From contig OZ245011.1 in NCBI GenBank assembly GCA_965223665.1, positions 3,264,001 to 3,328,000 of the forward strand: 64,000 bases of DNA, given 5' to 3'. Positions 15,278-26,888 of the stretch are shown piece by piece; position 1 is the stretch's first letter; each line of letters begins with the position of its first letter. The notes beneath the pieces are model-generated. The model was given only the letters and a program-made list of their open reading frames with translations, was not told where the DNA came from and did not search any database. The DNA is from Nitrospinaceae bacterium (lineage in GTDB: Bacteria > Nitrospinota > Nitrospinia > Nitrospinales > Nitrospinaceae). The position numbers and the translations under genes are program-made.

Positions 15278-16831
15278 ATGCAAGGCTTGCCTACTACCCC
15301 AATGGGGGAGATCCCACACCAGCTCCCTCTAAAAATTTTACTGGTTGAAAGTAACGATGAAGATGCAAACTTACTGAAGCTGCTCTTAGGTCGTTTACAG
15401 AACCCCCCTTTTAGTTTGGAAGTAGTTTCCACACTAAAGGAAGGAATTAATTGTTTAGAAACTGGATCCATTGATTTAGTCATTTTAAACTTATTCCTTA
15501 AAGACAGCCAAGGGTTGGGAACTTTTAATGTTATTAATCAAAAGTTTCCCCATGTTGCTCTTGTGGTTTTTAGCACTGACCATAATGAAGATCTTGCCAT
15601 AAAAGTGATTCAAAAAGGTGCTCATGATTATTTGGTAAAAGAAAGTTTGGACTTAACCCATATCGTCCGCTCCATGCGTATTGCCTTTGATAATAAACAA
15701 ACGAAAATGGCATTACGAGCCCAGGAAGATCAAATAAAATCTGTTTTGAACCATTCCTTTGATACAATAGTCGTCTTTGATTTTAATGGGATTATCTTTT
15801 CAATAAATCCTTCGGGCGAAAAAACGTTTGGTTATAAAGCAGAAGAGGTCAGAGGTAAGCATATTAGCGAACTTTTACCAAATCCAATTTCCCAAGGGAA
15901 TGGGTCAGCTACTTCACAAAAAACACCATTTCCAAATATAAACTTTGCTATAAGTGACCAATTGATTGAATTTGTTGGCAAACATAAAGATGGGAACCGA
16001 ATTTCATTAGAAGTTTCTTTTAATGAAATTTTTCAGAATGATTGTAAATTAATAATGGGCATTTTTAGAGATATTACGGATCGTAAATTAGCGCAAGAAA
16101 AGTTAATCAAAGCTCAAAACGAATTAATACGTGCAGGAAAATTAGCTATATTAGGTGAAATGTCGGCAGAAATTAGCCATGAATTAAACCAACCTCTAGA
16201 GGCTATTCAAGCATACATAGACAATATTAATTTTTTGTTGGAACACAAGAGATATGAAGATGTGCAAAATAATTTTGAAGCGGTTTGTGATCTGACACAA
16301 CGAGCTGGAAATATTATTGATAATATAAAAAATAGATTATGTGATCAGTCATATGTTCCAGAATCTATTTCTGTCCAGGAAACATTGGAATCAACTCTTT
16401 CTTTATTATCTTTAGGAAATCGATTAAAAGATGTAGTGGTGGAAAAAAAATTCCCAAAAGAAATGTTGATTACCCAAGCGAATTCCCTAAAATTAGAACA
16501 AGCATTTTTAAACTTAATTACAAATGCCTTAGATGCAATGGATGGGGAAAAAAATAAAGTATTAACCCTATCGTTAGAAAGCAATAAAAATGAAATTTTA
16601 TTAAGCTTTAAAGATTCTGGCAAGGGTTTAAGTGAAAATGAACTTCCACATGTTTTTGAACCGTTTTTTACAACGAAAAACATCAAGAAAGGGTTGGGCT
16701 TGGGGCTTTCAATTTCTTCAAATATAATCAAAGAATTTGATGGTAGTATTGAAGTAAATAACAAATCCAATCGAGGGGCAGAGTTTATTGTCAGGCTACC
16801 TCTCCTATCTGAGCCTGTGAAAACTATTTAA
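15278..16831 (+). CDS. Soluble sensor histidine kinase: pseudo-receiver, PAS, HisKA, HATPase (DctB/NtrB-like)
   Basis: REC fold at N-terminus, PAS (NPSGEKTFGY...RDITDRK), HELNQPL H-box, N/G1/F/G2 boxes; no TM helices. Confidence 0.88.
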   Translation: MQGLPTTPMGEIPHQLPLKILLVESNDEDANLLKLLLGRLQNPPFSLEVVSTLKEGINCLETGSIDLVILNLFLKDSQGLGTFNVINQKFPHVALVVFSTDHNEDLAIKVIQKGAHDYLVKESLDLTHIVRSMRIAFDNKQTKMALRAQEDQIKSVLNHSFDTIVVFDFNGIIFSINPSGEKTFGYKAEEVRGKHISELLPNPISQGNGSATSQKTPFPNINFAISDQLIEFVGKHKDGNRISLEVSFNEIFQNDCKLIMGIFRDITDRKLAQEKLIKAQNELIRAGKLAILGEMSAEISHELNQPLEAIQAYIDNINFLLEHKRYEDVQNNFEAVCDLTQRAGNIIDNIKNRLCDQSYVPESISVQETLESTLSLLSLGNRLKDVVVEKKFPKEMLITQANSLKLEQAFLNLITNALDAMDGEKNKVLTLSLESNKNEILLSFKDSGKGLSENELPHVFEPFFTTKNIKKGLGLGLSISSNIIKEFDGSIEVNNKSNRGAEFIVRLPLLSEPVKTI

Positions 16832-18198
16832 TGAGCGCGCAAGGCAAAGTCATTTTTGTAGATGACGAGAAGCATATCCGTCACTCCAGAAAACAGACCT
16901 TAGAATTAGTGGGTTATGAGGTTTCCTGTTTCTCCAACCCTAAAGACGCTCTTGCCATGATCTCCCCTAGGTGGGCCGGTATCATTGTGACTGATATAAA
17001 AATGCCTGATATGGATGGGTTTGAGTTTTTGCAACAGGTCATAATGATTGATAAAGAAATCCCAGTTGTGGTAATGACAGGGCATGGTGATGTCCCAATG
17101 GCAGTCAAAGCGATGCGTTTGGGAGCCTATGATTTCATTGAAAAACCCTGTTCTTCTGAACATTTTTTAGAAGCCATCAACCGAGCCATCGAAAAAAGAA
17201 AATTAATTTTAGAAAATCGTATCCTTCGCTCAGAAATTGAATCTCAAAAATCACCAGGAGTAAAAATTATCGGTAAGTCACCTTCCATTGAACAACTTAA
17301 ACAAGTCATAAGGAATGTTGCAGATTCCAATGTCGATGTATTAATTCAAGGTGAAACCGGTACAGGTAAAGAGTTGATTGCACGGTATTTGCATGACCAA
17401 AGCAAAAGGAATAAAAAAAGCTTTGTTCCATTAAACTGTGGAGGGTTTCCGGAAACTATTATTGAAAGTGAACTTTTTGGTCACGAAGCTGGAGCTTTTA
17501 CAGGTGCAGAAGCTCGGCGCATTGGCAAGTTTGAGCATGCGGATGGTGGAACTATTTTTTTGGATGAAATTGAAAGCATGCCCCTTAACTTACAAGTAAA
17601 ATTGTTAAGAGTCATTCAAGAAAGAGTTATCGAAAGATTAGGATCCAATGAAATTATACCTGTAGACATACGTGTAGTGGCGGCTACTAAGGTGGATCTT
17701 AAAGAGGCCAGTCAAAAAAATGAGTTTCGAGAAGATTTATTTTATAGACTCAATGTTGTTAAGGTAGACCTGCCCGCTTTAAGAGAGCGGAGAGAAGATA
17801 TTCCTCTTCTGTTCCAGTTTTTTGTCGCCGAAGCTTGTGACAGATATAATTATGAAGTTCCGATCATATCCCGAGATACCATTCAAAATTTAATGCTCAG
17901 GTCTTGGGAAGGGAATGTTCGTGAATTAAAAAATGAGGCTGAAAGGTTTGTTTTGGGGATGTCATTGAAGACAATTAACGAAGGAGTGAATTTACCAAAA
18001 TTTACTTTAAGTCCGCAGCAGGAAAAAACTTTGAGTTTGGCTACACAAGTGGATATGTTTGAAAAAACTGCAATTGAACAAGAATTAATTCGGCAAAAAG
18101 GTGATATTAAAAAAACCTACACTGCTTTAGGTATTCCAAGACAAACTTTATACGATAAAATGAATAAGTATGGCCTTAAACGTAAAGAATTTATTTAG
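16831..18198 (+). CDS. Sigma54-dependent response regulator, DctD/NtrC family
   Basis: REC (VDDE, TDIKMP), GETGTGKE, ESELFGHEAGAFTGA, FREDLFYRLNV, C-terminal HTH; start overlaps the kinase stop. Confidence 0.93.
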   Translation: MSAQGKVIFVDDEKHIRHSRKQTLELVGYEVSCFSNPKDALAMISPRWAGIIVTDIKMPDMDGFEFLQQVIMIDKEIPVVVMTGHGDVPMAVKAMRLGAYDFIEKPCSSEHFLEAINRAIEKRKLILENRILRSEIESQKSPGVKIIGKSPSIEQLKQVIRNVADSNVDVLIQGETGTGKELIARYLHDQSKRNKKSFVPLNCGGFPETIIESELFGHEAGAFTGAEARRIGKFEHADGGTIFLDEIESMPLNLQVKLLRVIQERVIERLGSNEIIPVDIRVVAATKVDLKEASQKNEFREDLFYRLNVVKVDLPALRERREDIPLLFQFFVAEACDRYNYEVPIISRDTIQNLMLRSWEGNVRELKNEAERFVLGMSLKTINEGVNLPKFTLSPQQEKTLSLATQVDMFEKTAIEQELIRQKGDIKKTYTALGIPRQTLYDKMNKYGLKRKEFI

Positions 18199-18479: not shown

Positions 18480-21224
18480 ATGGACGATATGTGGCCGATT
18501 ATCAATGAATTTTTAACGGAAAGCTACGAGAATCTTGATCAGTTAGATCAAGACTTAGTAGAGTTAGAGGCCCATCCGGATGAACAAAGCTTATTAGCTA
18601 GTATTTTCAGAACTATTCATACTATAAAAGGAACTTGCGGGTTCTTGGGATTTACAAAATTAGAATCTGTTGCCCATGTCGGAGAAAATCTTTTAAGTAA
18701 ACTTCGAGATGGTGAATTGAGTATGACCCCTGCAATTGCAAGCGCCCTTCTTTCAATGGTTGACGCAATTCGACAAGTTTTATCCTGCATTGAAAAAGAC
18801 CAAAATGAAGGAGATGTGGATTATTCTGCCTTGGTAGAAACTTTAACTCGACTACAAGCTGGAGAAGATGTTGAGCTTGATAAGGTATCTACGCCTCAAG
18901 CGCCAACAGATAAATCCGACTCATCCCCCGAAGAATCAAAAAGTGAAGAACTGGGAGTGGCGGTTTCAGCCGAAGAAAAAACAGAAAACGCTTCATCATC
19001 TACTTCAGATTCCTCTGGAAAATCTCCCTTAGAACAATTGGGTGGACATGTTTTTATCGAATTAACAGTAGATATGCTCTATGACAAATTAATTAAAGAT
19101 GAAAGAGTAAATCAATTTTTTGAAGGATTGGATTTAGTTGTCCTTCGCCGGAATATGCGGGAATTTCTTGTTGGTTCACTTAAAGAACCTTCTGAAGATC
19201 TAAGCTCAGAATTGAAGGATTCTCATCAAACCTTGGCGGAAAAAGGGTTTGCCGATTCCCATTTTGAAGTTGTAATGGAAAACTTGGGAACTACCCTCCA
19301 GGCATTAAATATGAAAGAAGAGTTTGCTAGCTTGGTTACAGCAAAAGTCCTTTCAGTTAAGGATAAACTTCTAAATAAAGGAGATTCAAAAAGTACTTCT
19401 TCAGAACAACCCAATTCGGCAATTGTTTCTAGTGAAAGTGTGCAATCTGGCCAAGAATCCAAGCCAACGCAAGAAATTCAAAAAGTATCTGAAAAAAATG
19501 AAAATCCTTCCTCTTCCAGTGAAAGTAAACCTTCCAATCCGGGAACTCCTCCAAGTCGATCTTCTGAGAGTATACGTGTCGATGTAGAAATGTTGGATTC
19601 CTTAATGAATTTAGTTGGAGAACTTGTTTTAGCACGAAATCAAATAATGCAGTTTACAACAACCGAAAAAGATGCGACCTTTATTGCCACAACTCAACAT
19701 CTTAATCAATTGACAACAGAGTTGCAGGAAGGGGTTATGAAAACTCGGATGCAACCCATTGGGAACATTTGGAATAAGTTTCCTAGGGTAGTAAGAGATT
19801 TATCCCATTCTGTAAATAAACAGGTCCGTTTGGAAATGGAAGGAAAAGAGACGGAGCTTGATAAAACACTAATTGAAGCGATTAAGGATCCTCTAACACA
19901 TATTGTACGTAATTCAGTGGATCACGGAATTGAATCACCTGAGGCCCGGCAATCAAAGGGAAAAAATCCGGAGGGAGTATTAAAGCTTCGTGCGTATCAT
20001 GAGGGTGGTCAGGTTAATATTGACATCATTGATGATGGGGGTGGAATTGATCCTGAAAAGATCCGTCAAAAAGCGCTATCCAAAAATTTAATCACTCAAC
20101 AGCAATCTACAAAAATGAGTGACCGGGAAGTCGTCAATTTGATTTTTAACCCCGGTTTTTCTACCGCCGAAAAAGTTTCAAATATTTCGGGTCGCGGCGT
20201 AGGAATGGATGTTGTCAAAACTAATATAGAGAAGATTGGTGGAACAGTTGATATTCAAACAAAAGTTAATGAAGGTACTTCCTTAAAAGTTAAAATCCCT
20301 TTAACTTTGGCAATTATTCCAGCTTTGGTGGTGAAATGCGGAGGTTGGCGATATGCCATTCCACAAGTAAGTTTAGTTGAATTAGTAAGATTAGAAGCTG
20401 ACCAGGCGACCCACGGTATTGAGGAAATCCAGGGAGCTCCTGTTTACCGGCTTAGAGGAAATTTACTTCCGTTGGTTTATCTTCATCAAGAATTAGATGT
20501 TAAACAACAATTAGAGGAAGCAGGGGTGGTTAATATTGTGGTCCTCCAAGCAGACAAGCGGCAGTTTGGCCTCGTAGTAGATGGAATTCTTGATACTGAA
20601 GAAATTGTTGTTAAACCTTTGGGTAAGCAATTAAAAGGAATTACTGCATTTGCCGGAGCAACAATAATGGGAGATGGAAAAGTAGCTTTAATTCTAGATG
20701 TGATGGGTTTAGCTCAAAAAGCAAGGGTTCTTTCAGAAGCTTCTCACGGACAATCTGCATCCGACGCAACAGAAAAATCAACATCGAGAAATGGAGAATT
20801 ACAAACTCTATTGATTTTCTCTTTGGGACAAGAAGGACGTATGGCGGTCCCGCTATCCATGGTGGCCCGTTTAGAAGAATTCAAACGAGGTACCATAGAG
20901 CATTCGGGTGATCAAGATGTGGTCCAATATCGCGGTGAGATAATGCCATTAATTTATTTATCCGATGTTTTTGGAGGAATGCGACCTGAGACCGAAGAAA
21001 TGCAAGTTATAGTTTACTCTGCACAAGGTCGCAGCGTAGGGGTTGTAGTAGGAGAAATAATTGATATTGTCGAAGAGATGGTTACAGTTAAGCAGGGTTC
21101 TGGTGGGCAAGGTGTATTAGGATCGGCCGTTGTCCATGGTAAGGTTACAGATTTATTGGATGTCGAAGGGGTAATACGTTCTGCGGATCCAAGTTTTTAC
21201 GATGAATCATTGATGGTGGGTTAA
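18480..21224 (+). CDS. cheA: CheA-family kinase: HPt, truncated globin, dimerisation domain, HATPase, CheW, second CheW
   Basis: IFRTIHTIKG (His47), IRVDV..LD.LMNLVGELVLARNQ, HIVRNSVDHGIE, SGRGVGMDVV, two CheW-like domains; AAGGAG SD. Confidence 0.93.
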   Translation: MDDMWPIINEFLTESYENLDQLDQDLVELEAHPDEQSLLASIFRTIHTIKGTCGFLGFTKLESVAHVGENLLSKLRDGELSMTPAIASALLSMVDAIRQVLSCIEKDQNEGDVDYSALVETLTRLQAGEDVELDKVSTPQAPTDKSDSSPEESKSEELGVAVSAEEKTENASSSTSDSSGKSPLEQLGGHVFIELTVDMLYDKLIKDERVNQFFEGLDLVVLRRNMREFLVGSLKEPSEDLSSELKDSHQTLAEKGFADSHFEVVMENLGTTLQALNMKEEFASLVTAKVLSVKDKLLNKGDSKSTSSEQPNSAIVSSESVQSGQESKPTQEIQKVSEKNENPSSSSESKPSNPGTPPSRSSESIRVDVEMLDSLMNLVGELVLARNQIMQFTTTEKDATFIATTQHLNQLTTELQEGVMKTRMQPIGNIWNKFPRVVRDLSHSVNKQVRLEMEGKETELDKTLIEAIKDPLTHIVRNSVDHGIESPEARQSKGKNPEGVLKLRAYHEGGQVNIDIIDDGGGIDPEKIRQKALSKNLITQQQSTKMSDREVVNLIFNPGFSTAEKVSNISGRGVGMDVVKTNIEKIGGTVDIQTKVNEGTSLKVKIPLTLAIIPALVVKCGGWRYAIPQVSLVELVRLEADQATHGIEEIQGAPVYRLRGNLLPLVYLHQELDVKQQLEEAGVVNIVVLQADKRQFGLVVDGILDTEEIVVKPLGKQLKGITAFAGATIMGDGKVALILDVMGLAQKARVLSEASHGQSASDATEKSTSRNGELQTLLIFSLGQEGRMAVPLSMVARLEEFKRGTIEHSGDQDVVQYRGEIMPLIYLSDVFGGMRPETEEMQVIVYSAQGRSVGVVVGEIIDIVEEMVTVKQGSGGQGVLGSAVVHGKVTDLLDVEGVIRSADPSFYDESLMVG

Positions 21225-21235
21225 GGAGGAAATAA

Positions 21236-21682
21236 ATGTCAAGCACTACCAAACAATATTGTACTTTCTATTTAGATAATCACTATTTTGGAATTGATGT
21301 ATTAGACGTACAAGAGGTATTTCGTTTTCAAGAAATGACTACTGTGCCTTTAGCCCCTAAAGTAATACGAGGATTAATCAATTTGAGAGGTCAGATCATT
21401 ACAGGAATTGATTTACGGCAAAGGTTGGCTATGGAAGAAAATGCTGACGAAAAACCCCCAATGAATGTTGTGGTTCGTACTCAAGAGGATGTGGTGAGTT
21501 TGTTGGTGGATGAAATTGGTGATGTAATGGAAATTTCTGACGATCATTATGAATCACCACCTGATACTCTTGATGAAAAAATTCGAGAATTGATCACCGG
21601 GGTATATAAACTTGATGGAAAACTACTTTTAGTATTAGACATTAATCGTGTTATGGATTTAAAAGTAGCCATTGCAGCATAA
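21236..21682 (+). CDS. cheW: Chemotaxis coupling protein CheW
   Basis: FGIDVLDVQE, VPLAP..IRGLINLRGQI, LLVDEIGDV; AGGAGG SD. Confidence 0.93.
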   Translation: MSSTTKQYCTFYLDNHYFGIDVLDVQEVFRFQEMTTVPLAPKVIRGLINLRGQIITGIDLRQRLAMEENADEKPPMNVVVRTQEDVVSLLVDEIGDVMEISDDHYESPPDTLDEKIRELITGVYKLDGKLLLVLDINRVMDLKVAIAA

Positions 21683-21741: not shown

Positions 21742-24700
21742 TTAAAGGGCGGTTCTTAAAAAAGTATCCATTGAATCCCTATAAAGTGACCTAACCTTTT
21801 TGGTCACTTTTAAATATTCTTCCATAAATAAATTTCCTTGTTCTTCAAAATCCTTTCCGGGGAAATTTAACATTCTGCCCAGTACTCCCAAAGTTTCTTT
21901 ATCTTGGGGAAGATAATTTGAGTACCGCGAATTTAGGAGTCTTAACGCGCACTCTAAATTACGAAGAAAATGATAGTATTTTCCGAGTTCTTCTCCCTGT
22001 TCGTAAGGTAAAATTCCATAGGAGGACAAATTCTGAATTAAATGGAATACATTTGTTTCCCGAAGCTTAGGGTAACGATGTCCATGCATCATTTGTAGAA
22101 TTTGTACCATGAATTCGATATCTGCCAGACCCCCAAAACCTAATTTTACATTTTTCCCCTTCTTTATCTCCTGACCAATTTCTTTTTCCATTCTTTCACG
22201 TAATCTTGCAATTTCAATTAAGGAATCGTATTTAAATTTTTTGGGGTAACTAAATCCCTGTGCAATTTCAATAAACTTTTTTCCCACCTCTGGATTACCT
22301 GCCACAAAGCGTGCACGGGTCATCGCCTGTTGTTCCCAAATTTGACCTCGATGGTTAAAGTAATCTTTATAACCATTCAAAGAAATTACTAAAGCCCCAC
22401 GACTTCCTTCAGGTCTAAGATCAGTATCGATTTTGTAAGCAAGGCCTTCAGAAGTCATTTCTGTGGAAAGTTGATATACTTTTTGTGCGAGAGACGAGTA
22501 CCAACTCACTAAATCTCCTTCAATGTATTTTTTAAAATTTTCATTTTCCTCATAAACAAATACAATATCTAAATCCGAACCAAAATTTAATTCCTTTCCC
22601 CCTAGTTTTCCTAATCCAATGATTGCAAATTGATGAGAAATCGGATTCAAAGAATTTTGAAATGCCTTATGTGTTAAAGCTAAATTTAAAACATTTTTTA
22701 AATAAATATCTGCCAAGTTCGATAAATCTGCCAAAGTCTCCGGCAGTCCTGTTTCACCTATTAAATATTTGATTCCAATTCGCAATTCTTCTCCGTTTTT
22801 AAACTTTCGGAGAAAAACATTTTTATTATTTTCTCCATCTTGTTTTTCTAAAGCATCGTTAAGATCTTTGGTCATTTCCTCCGGAGTTTTAAATCGGTAA
22901 ATTGACCCTGGATTAGACAATACATCAATTAAATAGGGCCGTTTTACCAGAAGTTGAGAAAGGACTTCACTTCCACCAAATAAAATTAAAAGTAATTCTA
23001 AAAACTTTTCATTTTCAGTAAATATAGCCAAAAAGGCATCTCGGGATTGACTTGCTTCCACAAACTTGACTAAATTTTCTATTGCAGAATTTGGATTGGG
23101 TACTTTTTTACAAAATTCTAATAGTGTTGGAAGCATCGAATAGAAGTCTCGAATACTACGTTCACTCGGATGAGAAAACTTGGGGCCATCGCGCAAATTT
23201 TTCAAGAAAGTAAAAGTTCTTTCTGGGTCTTTATAGTTAAAATCATTTAGCAACTCTGGACTGAATCTGGATTCTAGTTTTTTTTGGGCATCCCACTTTT
23301 GAAAAGTATTGTCTGCCGCTTTCTGATCTTTATCTTCTTTAAATAAATTAGCAAACATTTTAGCGACATATTCTGTATGTCTTTCAAATTCTGAGTTCAA
23401 AGCTAATACTAAGGCTTCATTGGTAGTACCTTTTAACCCCATTTTCCTTGCCAACACGGCTAAGTCGGTTTCATTTTTTGGTAGATGGTATGTTTGTAAA
23501 CCAAATGATATTTGAACTCGATTTTCTAAATTTCTCAGGAAAATATAAGCTTCTTTTAATTTTAAATATTCTTCTTCATTTAGAAAATCACGATTTCTTA
23601 ATTTTTTTAATACGTTCAAAGTATTTGCTTCTCGAAGTTGAATGTCCTGACCTCCAAATAAAAGCTGATATGCTTGGACAATGAATTCGACTTCACGGAT
23701 TCCTCCTGGCCCGAGTTTAATATGTCCTTTTTCTAACTTTTTCTTTTTTAAATCCAGGTCTACCTTTTTTTTAAGATTTTTAATTTCTTCAATGGCATTG
23801 AAATCCAAGCTTTTTCGATAAATGAAAGGTCGGATCATTGAAAAAAACTCTTCTCCTAAAGTTTCACTACCTGCTGAAACCCGAGCTTTAATTAAAGCTT
23901 GCCGTTCCCAGGTTCTTCCCCAGGATTGATAATAAATTTCGCAACTTGCCAGTGAGTTTACAATTTCCCCACTTTTTCCTTCCGGTCGAAGGTCGAGATC
24001 GACCCGAAAGACGTTTCCTTCTGAGGTGATCTCATTTATGGTTTGTGTGACTAACCTTGCAAACTTAGTATGATATTCGTGGTTGCTGATAGATGTGGTA
24101 GATGTATTATGGGGATCTTGAGACTGAGTTTCTCCCATACTGGAACCGTATATATAAATGAGATCAACATCTGAGCTGTAATTAAGTTCTTTTCCGCCAA
24201 GTTTTCCCATTGATAAAACTGTAAATTCAGATTCTAAAATTTTTCCATTTGGGTCTTTGAAAATGGGAGTTCCATATTTCTTTTTTAAAACTTTTTCCGA
24301 GTAATCGCAGGCAATTTGTAAACAGACATCTGCTAAATCAGATAAATTCTCCACATTTTCTTTCAGGGAGACTAAGCCCATTAAGTCACGCAAACCTATC
24401 CTTATATATTCACGTTTTTTAAACTTTCTTAAAAGCGATGGGATTTGTTCGTTTGAATAATTGAGGCCCGCCATTTCGTAAAACTCACGATAAAGCACGT
24501 TCTTGGTTTTAGAAACGGTTAGCATTCCTTCTTGGCTAAGCCAGTCAATATAAGAAGGATTACTTAAGAGAGTGTCTGTAAGGACTTGGCTTCCAGAGAA
24601 TAGTGTTATTAATGTTTTTAAAAATTCAGGAGAAAGAGCTAAAAGAGAATATAAATGTTCTTTATCTAATATTTTTTCCGTTAATCGGTCAAAATTATTT

Positions 24701-24921
24701 AAGGCGGTATCCGCTTTGTAAGAATTTTTTAGACAGTTAAAAAGTGAAGGAAAAAATGTTGGGTATAAATCTCTGAAATTTGCTTGGAGGGAGATGTTAG
24801 AAAAAATTTGCCAAGCTTTTTGAGGCTCGTCAAGATTTAGTTGGCGAAGAACATCATCAAATTGTTCTTCCCAAGGTGTTTTTTCAAAAATAAGATGAGG
24901 TAAGTCCGTAAGCTCAATCAT
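21742..24921 (-). CDS. glnE: Glutamine synthetase adenylyltransferase/adenylyl-removing enzyme
   Basis: Two NT domains (MGKLGGKELNYSSDVDL and LGKLGGKELNFGSDLDI), D.DLRPEG, KLG.GG..E/D.EF; downstream of glnA. Confidence 0.93.
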   Translation of the reverse strand: MIELTDLPHLIFEKTPWEEQFDDVLRQLNLDEPQKAWQIFSNISLQANFRDLYPTFFPSLFNCLKNSYKADTALNNFDRLTEKILDKEHLYSLLALSPEFLKTLITLFSGSQVLTDTLLSNPSYIDWLSQEGMLTVSKTKNVLYREFYEMAGLNYSNEQIPSLLRKFKKREYIRIGLRDLMGLVSLKENVENLSDLADVCLQIACDYSEKVLKKKYGTPIFKDPNGKILESEFTVLSMGKLGGKELNYSSDVDLIYIYGSSMGETQSQDPHNTSTTSISNHEYHTKFARLVTQTINEITSEGNVFRVDLDLRPEGKSGEIVNSLASCEIYYQSWGRTWERQALIKARVSAGSETLGEEFFSMIRPFIYRKSLDFNAIEEIKNLKKKVDLDLKKKKLEKGHIKLGPGGIREVEFIVQAYQLLFGGQDIQLREANTLNVLKKLRNRDFLNEEEYLKLKEAYIFLRNLENRVQISFGLQTYHLPKNETDLAVLARKMGLKGTTNEALVLALNSEFERHTEYVAKMFANLFKEDKDQKAADNTFQKWDAQKKLESRFSPELLNDFNYKDPERTFTFLKNLRDGPKFSHPSERSIRDFYSMLPTLLEFCKKVPNPNSAIENLVKFVEASQSRDAFLAIFTENEKFLELLLILFGGSEVLSQLLVKRPYLIDVLSNPGSIYRFKTPEEMTKDLNDALEKQDGENNKNVFLRKFKNGEELRIGIKYLIGETGLPETLADLSNLADIYLKNVLNLALTHKAFQNSLNPISHQFAIIGLGKLGGKELNFGSDLDIVFVYEENENFKKYIEGDLVSWYSSLAQKVYQLSTEMTSEGLAYKIDTDLRPEGSRGALVISLNGYKDYFNHRGQIWEQQAMTRARFVAGNPEVGKKFIEIAQGFSYPKKFKYDSLIEIARLRERMEKEIGQEIKKGKNVKLGFGGLADIEFMVQILQMMHGHRYPKLRETNVFHLIQNLSSYGILPYEQGEELGKYYHFLRNLECALRLLNSRYSNYLPQDKETLGVLGRMLNFPGKDFEEQGNLFMEEYLKVTKKVRSLYRDSMDTFLRTAL

Positions 24922-24956
24922 TGGTTTCCTAAAACTGAACCCCGGTAAAATAAATT

Positions 24957-24986
24957 ATAACCTCCCTGAATTTTCAGGGAGGTTAT
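24957..24986 (-). terminator. Strong hairpin after glnA (terminator or mRNA-stabilising stem)
   Basis: ATAACCTCCCTGA-ATTT-TCAGGGAGGTTAT perfect 13-bp stem. Confidence 0.7.
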
Positions 24987-25025
24987 TTTATTATGAACAA
25001 AAGATAATTTTAACAAGAATTTGGA

Positions 25026-26438
25026 TTAAGCATCATAGTATAAGAAAAACTCATAAGGATGCGGTCGGAGACGAATTTCATCCAATTCAGTTTCCTGTTT
25101 ATAGGAAATCCATCTGTCCACAACATCTTGAGTAAAAACATCTCCTTTTAATAGAAACTCATGATCCTGTTCCAATGCACCCAAAGCTTCCTCGAGAGAA
25201 CCGGGCAACCGGGGAATGTTAGCAAGTTCTTCAGGTCCCAAAGCATAAATATCTTTATCCATTGGTTCGCCAGGATCAATTTTGTTTTCAATTCCATCTA
25301 AACCTGCCATTAACATTGCGGTAAAAGCTAAATATCCATTACTGGTCGGATCTGGAAATCGACATTCTAGTCGTTTGGCTTTTGGGCTTGGCGAATACAT
25401 TGGAATTCGAACCGCCGCACTTCTATTTCGACTACTATAAGCTAAGTTCACAGGAGCCTCAAAACCTGGAACTAATCGTTTGTAAGAGTTTGCTGTTGGA
25501 GCAACAAAAGCTGCTAAGGCCCTTGCATGTTTCAGTATTCCTCCAATGTAGTGCAATCCCATTTCACTAAAACCTGCATAACCATTCCCTGCAAATAATG
25601 GATTGCCATCCTTCCAGATACTTTGATGAACATGCATTCCGGATCCATTATCTCCATAGATTGGTTTCGGCATAAATGTAGCAGTTTTATTATGTTGTCT
25701 TGCTACATTTTTAACAATGTATTTATACCACATTAAATTATCACCACATTTTACTAGTGGAGAATAACGCATATCAATTTCACATTGACCGCCAGAAGCA
25801 ACTTCATGATGGTGACATTCCATATCGATGCCTACCTTTTGCATTAGCAAAGTCATTTCTGTTCGCATATCTGCCAGGCTATCACTTGGGGAGACAGGAA
25901 AGTATCCCTCTTTATACCTTGGTTTATAACCCAGGTTAGGGCCTTCATCACGACCTGTATTCCAGTTTCCTTCTTTAGAATCTACATAATACGCAGCCAT
26001 ATTGATATCGGATTCATATCTGACATCATCAAATACAAAAAATTCTGGTTCAGGACCAAAATAAGCAGTATCGCCCAGACCTGTTGACTTTAAATAAGCC
26101 TCAGCCTTTTGCGCAATATTCCTGGGGTCACGTGTATATTTTTCTTTTGTAATTGGGTCCACAATATTACAAATCATACTTAGAGTGGGGACTTGGAAAA
26201 ATGGATCCATGACAGCGGTTTCACCATCTGGGATAACAAGCATATCGCTGGCATTAATTGCCTGCCAACCCCGGATACTCGAACCATCAAAACCTAACCC
26301 CTCCTCGAACATATGTTCTACAAGTTCACTGATCGGCACTGCAAAGTGTTGCCAGCTTCCAATGAGGTCCATAAATTTAAGGTCCACCATTTCCGCATTA
26401 TTTTGTTTTGCAAAATCAATTACCTCTTTTGGTGTCAT
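25026..26438 (-). CDS. glnA: Glutamine synthetase type I (beta)
   Basis: [38 protein letters not shown], adenylylation site PMDKDIY. Confidence 0.97.
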
Positions 26439-26540
26439 TAGACCCTCTCCTCCTTCTTTTTAGTTTGACCGTTTATCAAAGTTATTTATATAAATTAATT
26501 TTCTAATTGAAGAAATGGGAAACTGAATAAGCATTTGCTT

Positions 26541-26888
<348 letters not shown>

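Follow-up and report, generated by a model that had tools for sequence, protein, structure and literature searches.

The stretch of DNA analysed here, called the window throughout, comprises 64,000 nucleotides (nt) of contig OZ245011.1 from a Nitrospinaceae bacterium and carries a cheA gene whose product contains a truncated haemoglobin (trHb) between its phosphotransfer domain (HPt, or P1) and its dimerisation domain (P3). Coordinates are those of the window, and residues are numbered on the CheA protein of 914 amino acids (aa). The open reading frame (ORF) and the Pfam domains recognised in it gave the following order, each feature lying on the + strand:

18480..21224, +, cheA, 914 aa: P1-linker-trHb-linker-P3-P4-P5-second CheW-like domain (ORF and Pfam)
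18480..18869, +, P1/HPt, aa 1-130 (Pfam Hpt at 8-99; helices at 5-126 in the full-length model)
18870..19025, +, linker 1, aa 131-182, disordered and rich in Ser/Glu/Pro
19026..19370, +, group-I truncated haemoglobin (trHbN), aa 183-297 (Pfam, PDB search, predicted fold)
19371..19562, +, linker 2, aa 298-361, disordered and rich in Ser/Glu/Pro/Lys
19563..19745, +, P3 dimerisation domain, aa 362-422 (Pfam H-kinase_dim, E = 9.1e-19)
19887..20306, +, P4 ATP-binding kinase domain, aa 470-609 (Pfam HATPase_c, E = 8e-17)
20322..20720, +, P5 CheW-like receptor-coupling domain, aa 615-747 (Pfam CheW)
20808..21185, +, second, C-terminal CheW-like domain, aa 777-902 (Pfam CheW, E = 7.1e-16 with aa 760-914 alone)

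P1, P3, P4 and P5 follow one another in the order that is standard for CheA, and a model of the full-length protein contained a folded P1, globin, P3 and P4 as well as two beta-rich CheW-like domains. The two NCBIfam CheA models scored 466.6 and 425.6 bits, below their equivalog cut-offs of 950 and 793, and their top-scoring stretch was the core of the protein (aa 280-746). P1 is 100% identical to that of the sister species (genome G001), and we take its phospho-acceptor to be His47 (nt 18618-18620), going by the H-T-I-K-G motif. The CheA P2 domain (PF07194) had no match in the protein at E values up to 1 and none in the genome at E values up to 0.1, with a Pfam model that also misses the E. 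coli control and thus is not a universal P2 detector. P2 is not universal among CheAs, and its absence does not exclude the protein from them.

The insert is a group-I truncated haemoglobin

The original prediction, made by a reader who had the sequence and its ORFs at hand, had proposed a group-I 2/2 globin at residues 182-299 (nt 19023-19376), placed on Ser/Glu/Pro-rich linkers between the HPt and the dimerisation domain. Pfam, a search of the Protein Data Bank (PDB) and the predicted fold agree on the globin, and Pfam together with the full-length model bears out its location. The Bac_globin model (PF01152) barely passed its cut-off of 21 bits on the whole protein (21.1 bits at residues 185-284), and it reached 25.7 bits (E = 1.4e-5) on the excised residues 172-314 and 25.5 bits in the genome-wide scan. 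A phmmer search of the PDB returned trHbs as all of its best 20 matches, headed by GlbN of Synechococcus 7002 (2ksc; E = 1.6e-15), with which ~110 residues aligned gap-free. The assignment to group I follows from the same search, in which every match with an E value below 1e-3 was a group-I protein and group-II structures came lower (E = 0.27).

Structure prediction led to the same family. An AlphaFold2 model of the globin, computed from a 43-row alignment, had a predicted local distance difference test score (pLDDT) of 82.7 and a predicted template modelling score (pTM) of 0.74. Its best Foldseek matches were group-I trHbs, namely THB1 (6cii), 1dly, Mycobacterium tuberculosis trHbN (1idr/2gkn) and the Paramecium protein 1dlw, with TM scores on the target of 0.77-0.86 for the leading ones; all of the top 25 matches were trHbs (0.70-0.86), and group-II structures ranked from position 29 onward. 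Protoglobin, the family of 3/3 sensor globins, had no Pfam match in the CheA protein, and the predicted fold is of the 2/2 type. We regard it as near certain that the insert at aa ~183-297 is a group-I 2/2 trHb. Both the profile scan (Bac_globin above its cut-off, no P2 match) and the structure prediction (a 2/2 fold) came out as the original prediction had led us to expect.

Helix labels follow the numbering of GlbN and were transferred through the phmmer alignment. In this alignment Y201 is TyrB10, F214 is PheCD1 (in the F213-F214 pair of the CD region), H249 (nt 19224-19226) is the proximal HisF8 and the 'HF..V' motif belongs to the G helix, just as had been read from the sequence at the outset. 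H249 is the sole invariant column across all 43 aligned sequences. On the distal side, LeuE7 is L222 and MetE11 is M226. These two positions had been described as altered, a view that does not hold, since they fall within the variation of the family: 12 of 35 single-domain homologues have Leu at E7, 9 of 35 have Met at E11, and E7 is Leu in each of the 12 CheA-embedded copies. The embedded copies are also invariant (12/12) at the AB Gly-Gly, Phe CD1, His F8 and Phe G5, and the window copy retains Phe E14, Phe G5 and the G-helix His-Phe. Gly-Gly hinges at AB and EF are a hallmark of the trHb family; that at AB (G188-G189) is present in the window copy. From the conserved pocket residues, and solely from these, we infer that the domain would bind haem b.

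At position E10 (residue 225, nt 19152-19154) the window copy has Asn and the sister species (L015) has His. In cyanobacterial GlbN the residue at E10, a His, coordinates the haem from the distal side, and haem coordination may accordingly differ between the window species and its sister, as far as this residue indicates.

The fusion is real and the globin is maintained by selection

A 1145-base contig from the sequencing run of a second sample (X4) matched positions 18745-19889 of the window with 0 differences, and it spans the end of P1, the first linker, the globin, the second linker and the start of P3; only contigs of one sequencing study were compared with the fusion region. Such bridging without differences indicates that the fusion is not an assembly chimera. 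The reading frame, moreover, is unbroken in 12 full-length orthologues. The continuous frame, the orthologues and the bridging contig together rule out a frameshift, an assembly artefact and a separate gene.

The globin hangs on flexible tethers. Residues 133-180 and 301-371 have pLDDT values below 50 and no secondary structure in the full-length model, and the residues S/T/P/E/D/K/Q/N/G make up 81% of linker 1 and 88% of linker 2 (aa 298-355). The tethers are about 50 and 60 residues long in the window CheA; across the 12 orthologues, linker 1 measures 16-53 residues and linker 2 measures 45-69 residues.

Substitution rates were compared between the window genome (G000) and the sister species G001. 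The globin core showed a ratio of non-synonymous to synonymous rates (dN/dS) of 0.038 at a dS of 0.79, with 93% amino-acid identity. In linker 1 the ratio was 0.27 (71% identity) and in linker 2 it was 0.084 (62% identity over aa 298-355), while P3-P4 gave 0.010 (99% identity) and the whole CheA 0.039. The globin is under purifying selection as strong as that on the whole CheA; the divergent globin of this genus is maintained and is not decaying.

Distribution in the Nitrospinota and contents of the P1-P3 linker

A trHb match was found in 55 of 120 Nitrospinota genomes, and the globin was verified inside CheA in 14 of the 120, which belong to 2 families and 7 genera. The CheA-trHb is full-length in G000, G001, G002, G009, G012, G014, G038, G040, G050, G066, G089 and G098 and incomplete in two others, G018, where a contig end cuts it, and G090, where the frame is cut after the globin. 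The CheA frame of G090 (L130:3917-4885, - strand) stops after P1 and globin at 323 aa. The gene may be split in two or frameshifted there, or the assembly may be in error. In 9 further Nitrospinota genomes, the signalling domain of a methyl-accepting chemotaxis protein (MCP; Pfam MCPsignal) bears a C-terminal trHb.

Some of the MCPsignal-trHb proteins are just 240-320 aa long, with little beyond the hairpin tip and the globin; examples are L016:8930-9655 (-), L017:7009-7728 (+) and L129:4148-5110 (-), and long forms occur at L119 and L121-L124. In G014 a 1034-aa MCP with tandem N-terminal trHbs (L012:7067-10168) is encoded directly upstream of cheA-trHb.

We surveyed the region between P1 and P3 in the 80 closest CheA loci of a species-representative genome collection. 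The globin was present in 5 of the 80, all of them Nitrospinota and all duplicates of genomes already counted. A long insert characterised 14 loci of the Nitrospina type; it was a second complete HPt in the 8 that were read, two Hpt motifs were found in 13, and Pfam recognised two Hpt stretches in both of the 2 scanned. The remaining loci have a low-complexity linker in this place, and a P2 match was found in 0 of the 13 CheA relatives scanned. These results bear on the proposal that the globin stands in place of P2. It holds for the position; as a replacement it fails, because bare linker fills the slot in several Nitrospinota and in the closest CheAs of other phyla, a second HPt fills it in those of the Nitrospina type, and the relatives scanned lack P2; the globin is thus an insertion into a P2-less linker.

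The loci with a second HPt are L038-L043, L045-L047, L049, L052, L053, L057 and L070 (for example L043:1923-4790). The second HPt has its own His box, and in the kinase-core tree 12 such CheAs make up a single clade with good support.

The kinase-core tree (FastTree, P3 to the C-terminus, 65 rows) left out 22 of the 75 non-duplicate loci, in which the core measured less than 480 aa or the search for the motif was unsuccessful. It contained a Nitrospinota clade of 29 rows with a support of 98, made up of 12 trHb, 13 double-P1 and 4 linker-only forms, the linker-only forms being nested among the trHb forms; all 36 outgroup CheAs had a linker only. Within the Nitrospinota CheAs the globin is thus an inherited feature of the clade. 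The globin tree, computed from 125 columns, has poor resolution, with 41 of its 74 inner branches open. The free search dispersed the CheA-embedded globins over 5 groups, and constraining the 13 embedded globins to a single clade gave a log likelihood (lnL) 18.6 higher than the free search, with a p value of 0.77 in the approximately unbiased test (p-AU), so that a single origin of the CheA-embedded globins of the Nitrospinota is not rejected. One cluster of 18 rows (SH-aLRT 87) unites 7 CheA-embedded and 9 MCP-fused globins, and the closest relatives of the globin within the phylum are those fused to chemoreceptor C-termini. The simplest history would begin with a trHb entering a P2-less linker once, early in this CheA clade, followed by losses, with a duplication of P1 at the same place in Nitrospina, an order of events that we infer from trees not rooted by data. 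Word-index homologue searches are too coarse for the globin domain and their results are no measure of rarity: the window globin retrieved itself and the sister copy, and the G038 copy retrieved itself and one HAMP-MCP-trHb protein.

Truncated haemoglobins on signalling proteins beyond the phylum

An exhaustive HMMER search with the globin segment returned 720 proteins at E values up to 1e-3, and 52 of them, picked by length or architecture and not at random, were scanned with Pfam. Three of the 52 were of the CheA type, with the globin between P1 and P3 in P0092 and P0146 and after P5 in P0117. Among the others were one CheW-trHb, 7 MCP fusions and one HisKA-HATPase-REC-trHb, and the rest were mostly tandem multi-globin proteins; P0085, P0090 and P0107 combine Bac_globin, PAS and MCPsignal, as does the Corallococcus receptor Cc_4972. 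The three CheA-type proteins share 37-41% identity with the window CheA, and the label of P0146 gives an alphaproteobacterial metagenome-assembled genome (MAG) as its source. Fusions so distant probably mean that the CheA-trHb architecture arose more than once.

The same search and survey brought up further arrangements. P0004, P0005, P0008, P0010 and P0011 are giant proteins of up to 1882 aa with 6-11 tandem trHb units, and the multi-globin proteins P0017 and P0045 carry ankyrin repeats. Six loci in MAGs of Acidobacteriota, Planctomycetota and Eisenbacteria (L056, L081, L084, L090, L095 and L105) have, immediately 3' of the CheA relative, an ORF that begins with a trHb and starts ~4.7-5.2 kb into the locus. 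A chemoreceptor zinc-binding (CZB) domain, another sensor-type module within this class of CheA, is found among the C-terminal CheW-like domains of the CheAs L058:472-3306, L068:1842-4817 and L096:1887-4850; two of these are labelled Acidobacteriota/Terriglobia and one Alphaproteobacteria, and all group with Acidobacteriota rows in the kinase-core tree.

Genomic context and pathway partners

Next to cheA lie a cheW gene and an upstream two-component pair, as follows:

15278..18198, +, two-component pair upstream of cheA, syntenic with cheA across the family (Pfam)
15278-16831, +, REC-PAS-HisKA-HATPase hybrid kinase (Pfam)
16831-18198, +, NtrC-type sigma-54 activator (Pfam)
21236..21682, +, cheW, 148 aa, starting 12 nt past the end of the cheA ORF (Pfam CheW, E = 3e-33)

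The cheA-cheW order is the same in G014, and size-matched ORFs, unscanned, follow cheA in G001 and G012. The kinase/activator pair also precedes cheA-trHb in G002 and G014 (Pfam), and unscanned ORFs matched in size and order take its place in G001, G009 and G012. In relatives of family f2 the order is cheY-cheX-cheA(trHb), with cheB alongside.

The genome, that of a flagellated bacterium and 98.6% complete, gave one match to PF02895, making this its sole CheA. The partners of the pathway are all at hand, namely 8 MCP signalling domains, CheY, CheX, one CheB and FliG, with the CheY-CheX pair adjoining CheB ~2.1 Mb from cheA. The che genes that accompany cheA-trHb constitute an ordinary flagellar pathway. 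It had been suggested that the globin could modulate the kinase without a receptor, and this part of the original prediction finds no support, given the retention of P5 and a second CheW-like domain, the adjacent cheW and the 8 MCPs, CheY, CheX, CheB and FliG: a sole CheA with P5, cheW and 8 MCPs is a receptor-coupled kinase.

Facing cheA-cheW convergently, window positions 21742-26879 (-) hold glnA, a P-II gene and glnE, which encodes an adenylyltransferase of 1059 aa. With these genes on one side and the NtrC-type pair upstream, the che genes lie in a nitrogen-regulation neighbourhood.

Elsewhere in the genome there are three further Bac_globin matches. At C1 ~1.669-1.672 Mb (-; L022:152-3420) an apparent operon encodes a PAS-rich cytoplasmic MCP of 672 aa, a 116-aa PilZ protein and a stand-alone Bac_globin of 140 aa. 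At C1 ~3.792-3.795 Mb (L141:1429-2391, L029) a 337-aa open frame (320-aa ORF) matches the Protoglobin family; it lies ~2 kb from another weak Bac_globin match and is not among the MCPsignal matches.

Relation to known globin systems

Database annotators label proteins of the CheA-trHb type automatically. No paper describing a fusion of CheA with a globin turned up in literature searches, in keeping with the statement in the original prediction that no characterised one was known; the survey of multidomain trHbs by Hade et al. 2017 was outside the coverage of these searches and may list such fusions. A term search of a 2026 review on aerotaxis (PMC13401364) gave 0 occurrences of truncated globins.

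The nearest functional parallel is HemAT. According to that review, a haem globin of the HemAT type feeds O2 information into the CheA-CheY pathway (PMC13401364), and CheA-trHb would likewise be a globin input to chemotaxis. HemAT, however, carries an N-terminal 3/3 globin on an MCP signalling domain, whereas CheA-trHb has an internal 2/2 trHb held in the kinase by disordered tethers. With its 2/2 fold, its internal globin and no Protoglobin match, CheA-trHb is not a member of the HemAT-type globin-coupled sensors. In Corallococcus coralloides, Cc_4972 combines Bac_globin, PAS and MCPsignal and was proposed as an aerotaxis sensor on in silico grounds only (PMC6194562). As in CheA-trHb, a domain of the Bac_globin family is there fused to a chemotaxis component; its partner is a receptor whereas that of CheA-trHb is the kinase, and both are known in silico only.

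With the single-domain group-I trHbs (GlbN of Synechococcus/Synechocystis, M. tuberculosis trHbN and Chlamydomonas THB1) the domain shares fold and pocket at 24-33% identity, including His F8, Tyr B10, Phe CD1 and, as in trHbN, Leu E7. Those proteins stand alone as enzymes or ligand binders, whereas the trHb of CheA is an internal domain, has no EF Gly-Gly and has Met at E11. The classical P2 domains of E. coli and T. maritima are likewise strung between P1 and P3 by a flexible linker on either side, but their fold is unrelated to the globin. Chimeric trHbs such as the trHbO-ABM monooxygenase of Streptomyces join a 2/2 globin to unrelated domains. In a 2020 review the chimeric T globins of bacteria all belong to T2/O or T3/P, the T1 chimeras being eukaryotic (PMC7475203); CheA-trHb is a bacterial T1/N chimera.

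Possible roles of the globin in the kinase

Our best reading, to which we assign about an even chance, is that the trHb serves as a haem-based O2, NO or redox input that is tethered to the signalling array and acts by ligand-dependent docking. The trHb would bind haem b and report cytoplasmic O2 and/or NO, or the redox state of the haem. Depending on its ligand state, it would dock on the core signalling unit, that is, on P1, P4, P5/CheW or CheY, and docking would alter how frequently P1 gains access to P4 or how phosphate is transferred to CheY. The outcome would be an aerotaxis or NO-avoidance bias imposed at the kinase and added to the input of the eight MCPs. Docking is the likely mode because disordered tethers would carry no conformational signal through the backbone, and the fact that the CheA, CheW and MCP C-terminal fusions are all borne on linkers suggests that presence at the array is what matters. 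A sensing role of the trHb is plausible. A complex prediction for trHb and CheY (12-row globin alignment with haem; 12 CheY sequences, 11 rows counted) gave a score of 0.03, which speaks neither for nor against docking; CheY was the only partner tried, not P1, P4, P5 or CheW. In a stronger form of this proposal, which we hold to be less likely than not, the sensor would work through its tethering and not through allostery along the chain. The state of the haem would determine docking (P1, P4 or the P5/CheW ring), thereby gating the traffic of P1, and would give a nitrite oxidiser receptor-independent aerotaxis or NO-taxis.

A number of observations weigh against such a docking sensor. The group-I trHbs studied so far are enzymes or O2-avid proteins, M. 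tuberculosis trHbN being an NO dioxygenase, and not sensors. Known globin-coupled sensors connect globin and transmitter through helices, unlike the long disordered linkers found here on both sides. The distal residues are not uniform among the 12 embedded orthologues, which have Tyr (9) or Phe (3) at B10 and Gln (5), Glu (3), Met (2) or His (2) at E11, and the lineages may for this reason differ in their ligand chemistry. The EF Gly-Gly had been noticed as altered and is indeed replaced (..SLKEP..) in the window copy and in the sister species, while the other 10 of the 12 embedded copies retain it; the second EF Gly is replaced in 11 of the 35 single-domain homologues. In the globin tree, the window globin is the most divergent of the embedded copies, on a long branch with a stem of 1.28. 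Finally, some members of the same CheA clade have a linker only (L037, L051 and L061) or a second P1, so that the trHb module is dispensable for chemotaxis as such.

A rival reading is a tethered enzyme, an NO dioxygenase, NO scavenger or nitrite- or O2-handling haem protein that is anchored to the abundant polar array or guards it and has no effect on phosphotransfer. The nearest sequences and folds are single-domain group-I trHbs, whose established activity is NO detoxification, flexible tethers fit a passenger domain, and the three further Bac_globin matches indicate that globin chemistry is in wide use in the organism. We nevertheless consider such an enzyme unlikely. It would gain nothing obvious from being lodged between P1 and P3 of the only CheA, and the trHb fusions in our sample recurred almost exclusively on signalling proteins (CheA, CheW, MCP, PAS-MCP and HK-REC), the signalling-fused globins clustering together. 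A module that works without haem would serve either to dock CheY, CheB or CheX in the manner of P2 or, as a spacer, to set the tether length of P1. It would fit the topological position of the domain, which is that of P2, the loss of the EF Gly-Gly hinge in the window genus and a slot that elsewhere accepts a second P1 or plain linker. But a haem-less scaffold has no need of an invariant proximal His and of the retained Phe CD1, E14 and G5, and the relatives function without any P2-like module. Non-haem globins such as RsbR and photoglobin, moreover, form separate families (PMC8717448), and altogether this explanation appears distinctly improbable. Least credible of all, and already disfavoured by the data, is that the insertion is neutral or in decay and serves no function today. 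The divergence of the window copy, its narrow passage of the Pfam cut-off on the whole protein and the frame cut after the globin in G090 could be taken in its favour, but selection on the globin (dN/dS 0.038 at dS 0.79, against 0.27 in the adjoining linker), the intact frame in 12 full-length orthologues and the confidently predicted fold leave it very little room.

Implications for chemotaxis in the Nitrospinaceae

CheA-trHb is a real and conserved feature, and it would be a variant of haem-based chemotaxis input. In the textbook scheme of chemotaxis, receptors sense and CheA only relays. If the tethered, docking input proposed here is true, CheA-trHb would clearly exemplify a sensory input that joins the pathway at the kinase, in the sole CheA of a lineage, and it would give a first signalling role to a bacterial group-I trHb, a family so far made up of enzymes or ligand binders. 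The principle of an array-tethered trHb would also explain why linker-borne trHbs are found at CheA, at CheW and at MCP C-termini in several phyla. The series of bare linker, second P1 and trHb within one CheA clade offers a comparative system for the role of the P1-P3 tether. Members of the Nitrospinaceae live along O2 gradients and are the principal nitrite oxidisers of the sea. A bias by O2 or NO at the level of the kinase would suit a nitrite oxidiser along steep O2 gradients, and swimming tuned in this manner would, if true, bear on how these bacteria hold their position near oxygen-minimum zones.

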